Part shown: positions 4,168-38,353 of the stretch, in pieces
Layout of the letters: each line of letters begins with the position of its first letter
Position numbering within the stretch: the stretch's first letter is position 1
From: Escherichia coli
GTDB taxonomy: Bacteria > Pseudomonadota > Gammaproteobacteria > Enterobacterales > Enterobacteriaceae
Reading direction: 5' to 3' (one strand)
Length of the DNA: 64,000 nt
NCBI RefSeq assembly: GCF_024502345.1
Contig: NZ_JALDNN010000001.1
Notes under the pieces: generated by a model
Told to the model about the DNA's origin: nothing
Seen by the model: only the letters and a program-made list of their open reading frames with translations
Databases searched by the model: none
Translations under genes and position numbers: made by a program

Positions 4168-6135
4168 ATGGGTATTTTCTCCATTGCTAACCAACATATT
4201 CGCTTTGCGGTAAAACTGGCGACCGCCATTGTACTGGCGCTGTTTGTTGGCTTTCACTTCCAGCTGGAAACGCCACGCTGGGCGGTACTGACAGCGGCGA
4301 TTGTTGCCGCCGGTCCGGCCTTTGCTGCGGGAGGTGAACCGTATTCTGGCGCTATTCGCTATCGTGGCTTTTTGCGCATCATCGGCACATTTATTGGCTG
4401 TATTGCCGGACTGGTGATCATCATTGCGATGATCCGCGCACCATTATTGATGATTCTGGTGTGCTGTATCTGGGCTGGTTTTTGTACCTGGATATCCTCG
4501 CTGGTACGAATAGAAAACTCGTACGCGTGGGGGCTGGCCGGTTATACCGCGCTGATCATTGTGATCACCATTCAGCCGGAACCATTGCTTACGCCGCAGT
4601 TTGCCGTCGAACGTTGTAGCGAGATCGTTATCGGTATTGTGTGTGCGATTATGGCGGATTTGCTCTTTTCTCCGCGATCGATCAAACAAGAAGTGGCTCG
4701 AGAGCTGGAAAGTTTGCTGGTCGCGCAATATCAATTAATGCAACTCTGTATCAAGCATGGCGATGGTGAAGTTGTCGATAAAGCCTGGGGCGACCTGGTG
4801 CGACGCACCACGGCGCTACAAGGCATGCGCAGCAACCTGAATATGGAATCTTCCCGCTGGGCGCGGGCCAATCGACGTTTAAAAGCGATCAATACGCTAT
4901 CGCTGACGCTGATTACCCAATCCTGCGAAACTTATCTTATTCAGAATACGCGCCCGGAATTGATCACTGATACTTTCCGCGAATTTTTTGACACGCCGGT
5001 AGAAACCGCGCAGGACGTCCACAAGCAGCTCAAACGCCTGCGGAGAGTTATCGCCTGGACCGGGGAACGGGAAACGCCTGTCACCATTTATAGCTGGGTC
5101 GCGGCGGCAACGCGTTATCAGCTTCTCAAGCGCGGCGTTATCAGTAACACAAAAATCAACGCCACCGAAGAAGAGATCCTGCAAGGCGAACCGGAAGTAA
5201 AAGTAGAGTCAGCCGAACGTCATCATGCAATGGTTAACTTCTGGCGAACCACACTTTCCTGCATTCTGGGCACGCTTTTCTGGCTGTGGACGGGCTGGAC
5301 TTCCGGCAGTGGTGCAATGGTGATGATTGCGGTCGTGACGTCACTGGCAATGCGTTTGCCGAATCCACGCATGGTGGCGATCGACTTCATCTATGGGACG
5401 CTGGCCGCGCTGCCGTTAGGGCTGCTCTACTTTTTGGTGATTATCCCTAATACCCAACAGAGCATGTTGCTGCTGTGTATTAGCCTGGCAGTGCTGGGAT
5501 TCTTCCTCGGTATAGAAGTACAGAAACGGCGACTGGGCTCGATGGGGGCACTGGCCAGCACCATAAATATTATCGTGCTGGATAACCCGATGACTTTCCA
5601 TTTCAGTCAGTTTCTCGACAGCGCATTAGGGCAAATCGTCGGCTGTGTGCTCGCGTTCACCGTTATTTTGCTGGTGCGGGATAAATCGCGCGACAGGACC
5701 GGACGTGTACTGCTTAATCAGTTTGTTTCTGCCGCTGTTTCCGCGATGACTACCAATGTGGCACGTCGTAAAGAGAACCACCTCCCGGCACTTTATCAGC
5801 AGCTGTTTTTGCTGATGAATAAGTTCCCAGGGGATTTGCCGAAATTTCGCCTGGCGCTGACGATGATTATCGCGCACCAGCGCCTGCGTGATGCGCCGAT
5901 CCCGGTTAACGAGGATTTATCGGCGTTTCACCGACAAATGCGCCGCACAGCAGACCATGTGATATCTGCCCGTAGCGATGATAAACGTCGTCGGTACTTT
6001 GGCCAGTTGCTGGAAGAACTGGAAATCTACCAGGAAAAGCTACGCATCTGGCAAGCGCCACCGCAGGTGACGGAACCGGTTCATCGGCTGGCGGGGATGC
6101 TCCATAAGTATCAACATGCGTTGACCGATAGTTAG
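4168..6135 (+). CDS. aaeB: p-hydroxybenzoic acid efflux pump, inner membrane subunit
   Basis: ORF track 655 aa, polytopic membrane protein, directly downstream of aaeA. Confidence 0.93.
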
Positions 6136-35662: not shown

Positions 35663-36387
35663 GTAAAAGCCGCTTAACGGTGTTTAGTTTCGTTCGCCGT
35701 TTTCTTTTGCGGTTAATGGTTGTCCTCGCCGTTTTCTGGGGCGGGGGCATCGCGTTGTTTAGCGTTGCGCCTGTTCCCTTCTCAGCGGTAATGGTCGAGC
35801 GACAGGTCAGCGCCTGGCTGCATGGCAATTTTCGTTACGTGGCACATTCTGACTGGGTCAGTATGGATCAAATCTCGCCGTGGATGGGACTGGCGGTGAT
35901 TGCCGCAGAAGATCAGAAATTTCCTGAGCACTGGGGCTTTGATGTCGCTTCCATTGAGAAAGCCCTGGCGCACAATGAGCGCAATGAAAACCGTATTCGC
36001 GGTGCTTCAACGATTTCTCAACAGACAGCCAAAAATCTCTTTTTATGGGATGGGCGTAGCTGGGTTCGAAAAGGGCTGGAAGCCGGATTAACGCTGGGGA
36101 TAGAAACTGTCTGGAGCAAAAAGCGTATCCTGACGGTTTACCTGAATATCGCCGAATTTGGCGACGGTGTGTTTGGCGTCGAAGCTGCGGCACAACGTTA
36201 TTTCCACAAACCCGCGAGCAAACTTACCCGATCGGAAGCTGCCTTACTGGCAGCTGTATTACCTAATCCACTTCGTTTCAAAGTCTCCGCGCCATCGGGC
36301 TACGTGCGCAGCCGTCAGGCGTGGATTTTACGGCAGATGTATCAGTTAGGCGGTGAGCCGTTTATGCAACAACACCAGCTGGATTAA
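35659..36387 (+). CDS. mtgA: monofunctional peptidoglycan glycosyltransferase
   Basis: ORF track 242 aa; start overlaps the elbB stop. Confidence 0.93.
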
Positions 36388-37016
36388 GCTTCGCGCGAAG
36401 CGAGGGCCAGCGTTTTGCTCTCACGAGGTTGCAGATCTTTCTGCAGGGCAATAGCCAGCGCCGGTTGGGCGATAAATCGTTTCCACAACCGCTCTTGCTT
36501 ACGCAGACAACACCACTTTGACCAGGTCGCCAGTGGAATCAATGTGCTTTCACCAATGTTGTCGCAGACAACGGGGATAACCTCTGACTCACTAATGCGG
36601 TGACAGAGGATATTCTGCGGCTTCAGCGACATCGTCACGATACGGTTATCCTGCAAATAACACTTCAGATGTTTCAGTAACTGGCGCAGTTGTGCAACGT
36701 CTTCTTCGTAACGGCATTGTTCAGCAAATTCGGTCAGCGTAATGGAGGGCTTGCCGTCAAAATCGGCAATCACATCGTAGACATAACCGGTTCCGCAATC
36801 CGTCTCAACGGTACCGTGATAGCGCGGTATTCCACTCCAGTCTTTTAACCGGCGACCAAGATGCGCGTAGTACTTTAACTCACGACGGATCTCTTTATCG
36901 CCACCATCGCCACGATGGTAGACAATCTTGATACAGCGTTGGGCATCTTCCGGATGCGCATAACATTTCCGATGTCTTCCGGTGCCCAGGGGACTTTGTT
37001 CAGATAAGCGAATCAT
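36384..37016 (-). CDS. yrbL: YrbL, PhoP/PmrA-regulated protein
   Basis: ORF track 210 aa; its 3' end overlaps the mtgA 3' end by 4 bp. Confidence 0.88.
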
Positions 37017-37089
37017 GCCATCTCCTGGAAATATTTTCTGACGATCTCCAGTATGGTCGATTAACTTAAACGAAACCTAAACAATGCTT

Positions 37090-37106
37090 CTTAAGGTTTT
37101 CTTAAG
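37090..37106. promoter_or_regulatory. candidate PmrA (BasR) box CTTAAG-N5-CTTAAG upstream of yrbL
   Basis: Perfect direct repeat cttaag gtttt cttaag, about 75-90 bp upstream of the yrbL ATG. Confidence 0.55.
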
Positions 37107-37229
37107 GTTCTTCTGAAAGTAAAAAGCGCACGAAATGTACAATTGACGTTGATTGAGAACGATTTCAGTACGTGATTTTCTTATTGTCGGGGGGAGTTTG
37201 AAGGGAGTTGTATGTCAAAGTGATGAAGA

Positions 37230-37502
37230 TTAATCTTCATCAAAACCAGAATTAAAGAGGGCGATAACGGCGGCCAGTGCTTCCTCTTCCTGTGGACCGG
37301 TCGCTTCAACTTCAATCTGCCGCCCTTTGGCAGAATCCAACATCAGCAGCGCAATAACGCTGTTGGCTTCAGCCTCGGTGCCTTCGTCATTACGTAACAG
37401 CACTTCAGCGTCAAAACCCTGCATTAATTCAAACAGCTTCATTGCAGGCCGGGCATGCATGCCCAGCTTGTTTGTGATTTCAACAGTTTGCTTGACGGTC
37501 AT
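37230..37502 (-). CDS. ptsO: nitrogen-related phosphocarrier protein NPr
   Basis: ORF track 90 aa, HPr-like. Confidence 0.93.
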
Positions 37503-38353
37503 GGTTTACGTTTTTCCAGCGTACGATGGCGTGACTGGACGTTTTTACCGCGCGAGCGGAAGTAGTCAGCCAGTTGCTCTGCAATATACACCGAACGGTG
37601 CTTCCCGCCGGTACAACCAATGGCGACCGTCAAGTAGCTACGGTTGTTGGTTTCCAGCATAGGTAACCATAGCTCAAGATAGCTTCGCGTCTGGTAGATA
37701 AAATTGTGTACTTCTGTGTGGCGGTCGAGGAACGCGGCGACAGGTTTATCAAGACCCGTCATTGGACGCAGTTTCGGATCCCAGTGCGGGTTCGGCAAGA
37801 AGCGCACGTCAAAGACGTAATCTGCATCGATAGGGATACCGTGTTTGAAGCCGAAAGACTCAAAGACCATGGTCAGTTCGCGTTCACGTTTACCCAGCAG
37901 ACGGGTACGCAGCATTTCAGCCAGCTCGTGAACGGACATTTCTGAGGTATCGACAATCAGATCCGCTCGCGAACGCAGAGGCTCCAGCAAATCGCTTTCT
38001 TTGTCGATAGCACTTTCCAGCGACAGGTTTTTGCTGGAAAGCGGATGCAGTCGGCGCGTGTCACTGTAACGACGAATTAAGGTATTACGGTCGGCATCCA
38101 GGAACAGGAGTTGCGGTGAGAAAGCGTCAGGCAGGTTACTCATCGCCTGTTCGAATATTTCTGGTGACTCCGGCATATTACGAACATCAATGCTGACGGC
38201 GGCAGAAATCTCGCGATCGGCCAGGGTTCGAGCCAGATCGGGTAACAACACTACGGGAAGGTTATCCACGCAGTAAAAACCCATATCTTCCAGCGCACGC
38301 AGGGCGACAGATTTACCTGAACCTGAACGTCCGCTGACGATCATCAGTACCAT
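37499..38353 (-). CDS. rapZ: RNase adaptor protein RapZ (YhbJ)
   Basis: ORF track 284 aa; Walker A GRSGSGKS. Confidence 0.94.

Follow-up and report, generated by a model that had tools for sequence, protein, structure and literature searches.

What does a perfect CTTAAG repeat in front of yrbL do: does it help to switch the gene on, or does it hold it back? The repeat lies in the window, by which we mean the whole 64,000-nt stretch of Escherichia coli DNA analysed here, and reads exactly CTTAAGGTTTTCTTAAG, with no mismatch, at 37090-37106. The preliminary description had taken it for a PmrA/BasR-type box standing where an activator site for yrbL would be. The repeat and its place upstream of yrbL proved to be as described, and the hexamers and the spacer had been read correctly, but the extent given was too short: the true unit is the 11-nt sequence TTCTTAAGGTT, present twice in a perfect 22-bp tandem (37088-37098 and 37099-37109) of which CTTAAGGTTTTCTTAAG forms the core. 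BasR (PmrA) is a response regulator of the OmpR/PhoB family, and the signals of BasS are Fe3+, Al3+ and mild acid. From the layout of the promoter, its conservation and the literature, we conclude that the element at 37088-37109 is very probably a BasR/PmrA operator that lowers the output of a class II promoter activated by PhoP, and we label it as such rather than as an activator site.

Rarity contributes to this conclusion without deciding it. The exact pattern was found in none of 100 dinucleotide-preserving shuffles of the window, and the yrbL site is the sole match to YTTAAK-N5-YTTAAK in the 64 kb, where 0.07 matches are expected; that the match is reported for both strands is merely a consequence of the palindromic CTTAAG. 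By our own arithmetic, about 0.3 perfect CTTAAG-N5-CTTAAG sites are expected by chance per genome of 5.5 Mb. The argument for function is accordingly built on position, conservation and literature, and not just on rarity.

The region 36900-37300 is identical (100%) to the chromosomes of E. coli O157:H7, and it is carried by 5424-5425 of 5426 complete E. coli genomes. The allele in the window is of the O157:H7 type and differs from K-12 at bases flanking the box, not within it. The features of the locus are as follows.

36384..37016, minus strand: yrbL coding sequence, 210 aa, PhoP regulatory network protein YrbL (PF10707, kinase-like fold).
37022..37026, minus strand: Shine-Dalgarno sequence AGGAG of yrbL, from the sequence.
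37050..37055, minus strand: -10 hexamer CATACT of the PhoP-dependent yrbL promoter, from the sequence and Table 2 of PMC3335776.
37067..37083, minus strand: PhoP box TGTTTA-GGTTT-CGTTTA, class II activator site, from the sequence, a Salmonella footprint, a Shigella EMSA and conservation.
37088..37109, plus strand: two copies of TTCTTAAGGTT, BasR/PmrA box with its core at 37090-37106, from the sequence, the repeat, a position weight matrix (PWM) and conservation.
37123..37141, minus strand: conserved block TGTACATTTCGTGCGCTTT, from an alignment of yrbL upstream regions.
37230-37502, minus strand: npr, the next gene upstream of yrbL, in the same direction.

Since npr and yrbL are co-directional, the 213-bp intergenic region between them is upstream of yrbL only. 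Read on the yrbL strand, it contains the PmrA box GAACCTTAAGAAAACCTTAAGAAG, a 6-bp gap, the PhoP box, 11 nt, the hexamer CATACT, 33 nt including AGGAG, and the ATG, which places the PmrA box 74-90 nt 5' of the start codon. The PhoP box TGTTTAGGTTTCGTTTA thus has the 11-nt distance to the -10 hexamer of a class II site, and the PmrA box lies well within 40 bp upstream of it, at 23 bp from start to start. A spacing of about 24 bp between the two sites has been published for yrbL of Salmonella (PMC2681069). The Salmonella PhoP box has been footprinted; it is of architecture I, in direct orientation and 11 nt from a -10 hexamer CATACT, and the promoter is a predicted class II promoter (PMC3335776). 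S1 mapping, under conditions in which PmrA is activated as well, located one PhoP-dependent start there, with a leader of 32 nt (PMC3335776). The Shigella yrbL PhoP site, tTGTTTAggtttTGTTTAa, has been confirmed by EMSA (PMC5775216). By homology, the E. coli start would be near 37047, or near 37043 if a standard -10 distance is assumed. The PmrA box would then span roughly -43 to -63 and lie immediately 5' of the PhoP box, instead of covering the -35 region.

Scans of 36900-37350 for promoter and terminator consensus sequences gave no matches, which is expected for an activator-dependent promoter without a -35 element. A search for RNA elements in 36800-37600 yielded no credible Rfam match at E <= 1; the sole match was to a eukaryotic snoRNA model (E = 0.33), far below its gathering score.

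Several further traits of the intergenic DNA were observed. The PhoP box region (37063-37084) and the PmrA box (37088-37109) form an imperfect 22-nt inverted repeat with 73% complementarity and 3 nt between the arms, because two related direct-repeat sites face opposite directions. The yrbL PhoP box, read as TTTAGG-N5-TTTAAG, is itself one mismatch away from the PmrA consensus. A Dcm site at 37024-37028 (CCAGG, on the yrbL strand) overlaps the Shine-Dalgarno region of yrbL, which is among the five most significantly up-regulated genes in a dcm deletion strain (PMC11741368), and a GATC site is found in the 5' UTR at about 37043-37046. At the far end, the palindrome GATGAAGAT-TA-ATCTTCATC (37222-37241) can form a perfect hairpin across the stop codon of npr; on the npr strand the hairpin is without a downstream T-run, and the terminator scan called no intrinsic terminator. 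Siccibacter and Pluralibacter have a canonical terminator, with a GC-rich stem and a T-run, in the place of this palindrome.

As a protein-binding site, the repeat resembles authentic BasR boxes closely. Half-sites recognised by PmrA follow the rule CTTAAG and xTTAAT, 5 bp apart (PMC3973317), and CTTAAG-GTTTT-CTTAAG has the same 5-bp spacing and a period of 11 bp. We compared it with the boxes of the K-12 promoters arnB, eptA, pmrR, waaH and ugd, each of which has the form CTTAAK-nTTnn-CTTAAT and is aimed at its gene. The yrbL box shares their core and GTT spacer, and in one of its polarities it reaches 19.5 bits on a PWM built from these five sites. The training sites themselves, left out one at a time (n = 5), score 11.5-19.2 bits forwards and 2.6-8.6 bits reversed, so that the resemblance is high by the measure of a training set of five sites only. 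The identity of the repeat as a PmrA/BasR box upstream of yrbL, as proposed from consensus alone, is supported by this likeness to boxes of BasR-activated promoters, spacer included.

The polarity and the spacing are a different matter. The 19.5 bits are obtained when the box is read away from yrbL, compared with 8.5 bits towards it, and the spacer and flank columns alone give +4.1 away and -6.9 towards the gene. In four of the five K-12 promoters a -10-like hexamer (TAAAAT, CATACT, TAAAAC or TATTCT) follows the end of the box at a distance of 10 nt; eptA has the same polarity and a poor hexamer, GAGCAT, at that spacing. At yrbL there are 34 nt between the box and CATACT, and the PhoP box is in between. 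By its sequence the yrbL site is a very good BasR box, with a polarity and a distance to the -10 hexamer unlike those of an activated promoter. The suggestion that it occupies the place of an activator site was not supported; the PhoP box fills that slot.

The proposal that yrbL is under the control of both PhoP and PmrA agrees with published work, in which both sites are present in the E. coli promoter (PMC2681069) and BasR and PhoP are the regulators tabulated for the gene (PMC4145685). The published sign is negative: PmrA represses yrbL (PMC3335776), and it represses yrbL and pmrD (PMC4196223). In iron-adapted populations of E. coli B with mutations in qseB or basR, the genes basR, eptA, arn and pmrR were strongly up-regulated, and yrbL was repeatedly among the most down-regulated genes (PMC13405929); these transcriptomes are correlative, as the evolved populations carried several mutations each. 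Our statements on PmrA binding at yrbL and on its negative sign are taken from later papers of one laboratory (Groisman). The PhoP and PmrA sites of E. coli yrbL were reportedly described by Zwir et al. (2005, PNAS), as cited by those later papers, and Kato et al. (2003) are said to have characterized the Salmonella pmrD promoter as PhoP-activated and PmrA-repressed.

With these data, the activator reading of the preliminary description can be weighed. BasR would recruit RNA polymerase, assisting PhoP from upstream or acting at a second, BasR-dependent promoter with the hexamer TAGGTT as its -10. On the yrbL strand, exactly 10 nt separate this hexamer from the box upstream of it, the same spacing as in arnB, pmrR, waaH and ugd; relatives have TAAATT, TAGGAT, TAAGAT or TAAGTT in its place, and the palindromic core hexamer formally allows the box to be read in either polarity. 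However, TAGGTT, the nominal -35 element in PMC3335776, is part of the PhoP box, which explains its conservation without a second promoter, and Siccibacter and Superficieibacter keep the box next to a hexamer that is not -10-like. Spacer and flanks resemble real boxes only when read away from yrbL, and the single Salmonella start is PhoP-dependent even when PmrA is activated (PMC3335776). The reported repression (PMC3335776, PMC4196223) and the decrease of yrbL while the BasR regulon rises (PMC13405929) also oppose an activating role, which we consider improbable.

The polarity of the box raises a second possibility, namely that it drives, or belongs to, a divergent transcript on the plus strand, antisense to the 3' end of npr. 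The PWM favours this strand, and a TACAAT at 37137-37142, within the conserved block, is 30 nt downstream of the box on it. At the 10-nt spacing, though, the plus-strand hexamer is AAGTAA in O157 and AAGTGA in K-12, with TACAGG, GGATAA, GGCAAG or ATAGGT in relatives, so that the hexamers there are neither -10-like nor conserved; TACAAT reads TACAAA in K-12 and most relatives, and the DNA past the conserved block diverges between genera. Neither the Rfam search nor the promoter scan returned a match that would favour such a transcript, and in Cedecea and Erwinia sp. the polarity flips while the box stays beside yrbL. Given the lack of a -10-like hexamer and of conservation at the 10-nt spacing, we regard a divergent promoter as highly unlikely.

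Conservation was assessed among seven E. coli sequences (the O157 window, K-12 and five sampled variants) and in relatives, of which 11 came from a genome scan with a single protein (12 loci, close relatives only) and eight further loci from a protein search or contig look-up. The PmrA box does not differ among the seven E. coli sequences, although the bases next to it vary. Box and 6-bp gap are kept together in other Escherichia, Citrobacter, Salmonella, Siccibacter, Pluralibacter and Superficieibacter, genera in which most other intergenic sequence has diverged. Invariance within the species and retention in at least six genera are what purifying selection on the box is expected to leave. 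In several of these relatives the strand pointing away from yrbL reads CTTAAGGTTTTCTTAAT, the canonical form of the first and second half-sites. Of the 20 aligned sequences, 17 have CATACT as the -10 hexamer; those that differ are from Pluralibacter, Enterobacter hormaechei (CATAAT) and Cedecea (TAGACT).

These observations bear on the reading of the repeat as a chance or decaying motif without present function, or as a site mainly for a paralogue such as QseB. The chance expectation of about 0.3 perfect sites per genome lends it some weight, as do the overlap between the QseB and BasR regulons discussed in PMC13405929 and the Enterobacter hormaechei homologue, in which the box has decayed to CTTATGTAAGTCTAAAG. 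A motif of this kind is hard to reconcile with a box that is invariant in 7/7 E. coli and keeps a fixed 6-bp gap in at least six genera amid diverged sequence, and the literature names PmrA as the regulator (PMC3335776, PMC2681069, PMC4196223). We therefore give this explanation very little credence.

At the Enterobacter hormaechei locus, in whose 700-nt flanks no neighbouring genes were called, the PhoP box (TGTTTAATGTCCATTTA) and the conserved block are both retained. In Erwinia sp. CPCC 100877 and Cedecea colo, the box reads CTTAAGGTTTT(A/C)TTAAG, in opposite polarity and further upstream, at about 12 nt and about 30 nt, respectively, from a PhoP-like box. The sequences suggest that this flip may have arisen by a local inversion between the palindromic CTTAAG ends, or by independent gain. 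In one E. coli genome, 2009C-3133 (NZ_CP013025.1), the yrbL promoter is interrupted by an IS1A element; the match to the window ends directly after ...TTAATCGACC, and the -10 hexamer and the 5' UTR are displaced. A 420-bp contig labelled Tannerella forsythia ATCC 43037 (NZ_JUET01000135.1) encodes the first 129 residues of YrbL with 97% identity to the E. coli protein, and is most likely E. coli contamination of that assembly.

The alignment of yrbL upstream regions also revealed the 19-bp block TGTACATTTCGTGCGCTTT, 16 nt upstream of the PmrA box and, by the homology-based start, at about -76 to -94. In the form (A/T)TTGTACATTTnGTGCnCTTT, extending to about 37145, it shows little or no variation in Escherichia, Citrobacter and Salmonella, and close variants are present in Enterobacter, Superficieibacter, Siccibacter and Pluralibacter. 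Its conservation equals or exceeds that of the PmrA and PhoP boxes; the window contains a single copy, and among the fetched loci the block is confined to yrbL. Its distance to the ATG is nearly fixed (-125, -126 or -128 in 16 loci), the npr terminator of Siccibacter and Pluralibacter precedes it, and it persists in Enterobacter hormaechei despite the decayed PmrA box; we conclude from these three traits that the block belongs to yrbL. Comparison by eye with consensus sites, among others those for sigma-54, CRP, FNR, RstA, OmpR, MlrA, TyrR, NtrC, MarA/SoxS/Rob, EvgA, CusR, Zur and Fis, gave no convincing match; with the RstA box, the agreement, again by eye, is confined to the first 10 of 14 positions. 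We tentatively raise, as a possibility we would not favour at present, a three-part control region in which the block is the putative site of a third regulator and BasR, bound between it and PhoP, modulates their communication.

Returning to the operator that we favour, its mode of action can be outlined as follows. A phosphorylated BasR dimer would bind the repeat head-to-tail, each 11-bp unit representing one helical turn and accepting one DNA-binding domain. The gene would be transcribed from the PhoP-dependent class II promoter, in which the PhoP box replaces the -35 element. Upon activation by BasS, or protection of phosphorylated BasR by PmrD, BasR would occupy the box and lower PhoP-driven transcription, so that expression of yrbL would need low Mg2+ (PhoP on) and be overridden by the iron/PmrA signal. 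In the case of a PmrD link from PhoP to PmrA, this arrangement would form an incoherent feed-forward loop with early, low-level expression. Among 20 PhoP targets of Salmonella, yrbL is the earliest and yet the lowest expressed (PMC4196223), which fits such a loop.

Physically, repression would most likely come about by crowding of the adjacent PhoP dimer, or by occupation of the upstream DNA that serves as the alpha-CTD zone. The 6-bp gap makes crowding plausible at yrbL. Occupation of the DNA from -40 to -65, with its alpha-CTD or upstream contacts, is possible and would also fit pmrD. The alpha-CTD version of this idea is weakened by mgtA, another architecture I promoter, at which PhoP-dependent transcription does not require the alpha-CTD (PMC3335776). 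Inverted polarity was considered as a hallmark of repression and rejected, as the Salmonella pmrD box is direct and the yrbL box flips in Cedecea and Erwinia sp. The trait common to the repressed promoters is therefore the position upstream of a class II PhoP box.

The value of this reanalysis is corrective. The yrbL box is an ordinary, known regulatory element, the BasR (PmrA) site already published, and site, regulator and sign are all in the PhoP/PmrA literature. A motif match alone does not give the sign of regulation, which follows from the position relative to the -10 hexamer and the PhoP box. Apparently additional are the perfect 22-bp tandem, the 6-bp gap that is constant in six genera, the polarity opposite to that of Salmonella pmrD with its flip in Cedecea and Erwinia sp., and the conserved neighbouring block. 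The regulation of yrbL is of some practical interest, since point mutations in the gene were found in two independently selected E. coli lines resistant to antimicrobial peptides. In a human gut metagenome contig, a convergent pair of genes of the YrbL family, about 50% identical to the E. coli protein, adjoins a gene of the Kdo/WaaP lipopolysaccharide kinase family (PF06293). The neighbourhood hints, if only weakly, that kinase-like YrbL proteins may act on the cell envelope, and the peptide-resistance mutations are in line with this.

The closest known system is yrbL itself: the bi-fan motif that it shares with pmrD, in which the PmrA input is negative, concerns the same locus and the same element (PMC3335776, PMC2681069, PMC4196223), and nothing of substance differs between the published E. 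coli site and the window. Salmonella pmrD is the nearest other case: it is repressed by PmrA, whose box there precedes a class II PhoP box located 11-12 nt from the -10 hexamer. Its box, ATTAATGTTAGGTTAAT, which we located at -102 to -86, differs from that of yrbL in three respects. It is aimed at its gene (20.2 bits direct, 7.3 bits reversed) whereas the yrbL box points away; its hexamers are imperfect and those of yrbL perfect; and it stands 17 bp from the PhoP box instead of 6 bp. We found 36-38 bp from start to start between the two pmrD boxes, for which a spacing of about 38 bp has been published (PMC2681069). The pmrD gene of E. coli has no such box at up to two mismatches. PmrA box 1 of Klebsiella pneumoniae pbgP, TCTTAATATTATCCTAAGC, likewise consists of two hexamers with a 5-bp spacer. 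Activated PmrA binds it head-to-tail through its two C-terminal domains, placing the recognition helix in the major groove and the wing in the minor groove (PMC3973317). That box is activating and has unequal half-sites, in contrast to the two identical 11-nt units at yrbL. With arnB, eptA, pmrR, waaH and ugd, finally, yrbL has in common the box sequence CTTAAK-nTTnn-CTTAAT and its 11-bp periodicity; at promoters of the arnB type BasR replaces the -35 element, whereas at yrbL PhoP holds that slot and the reported effect of BasR is negative.
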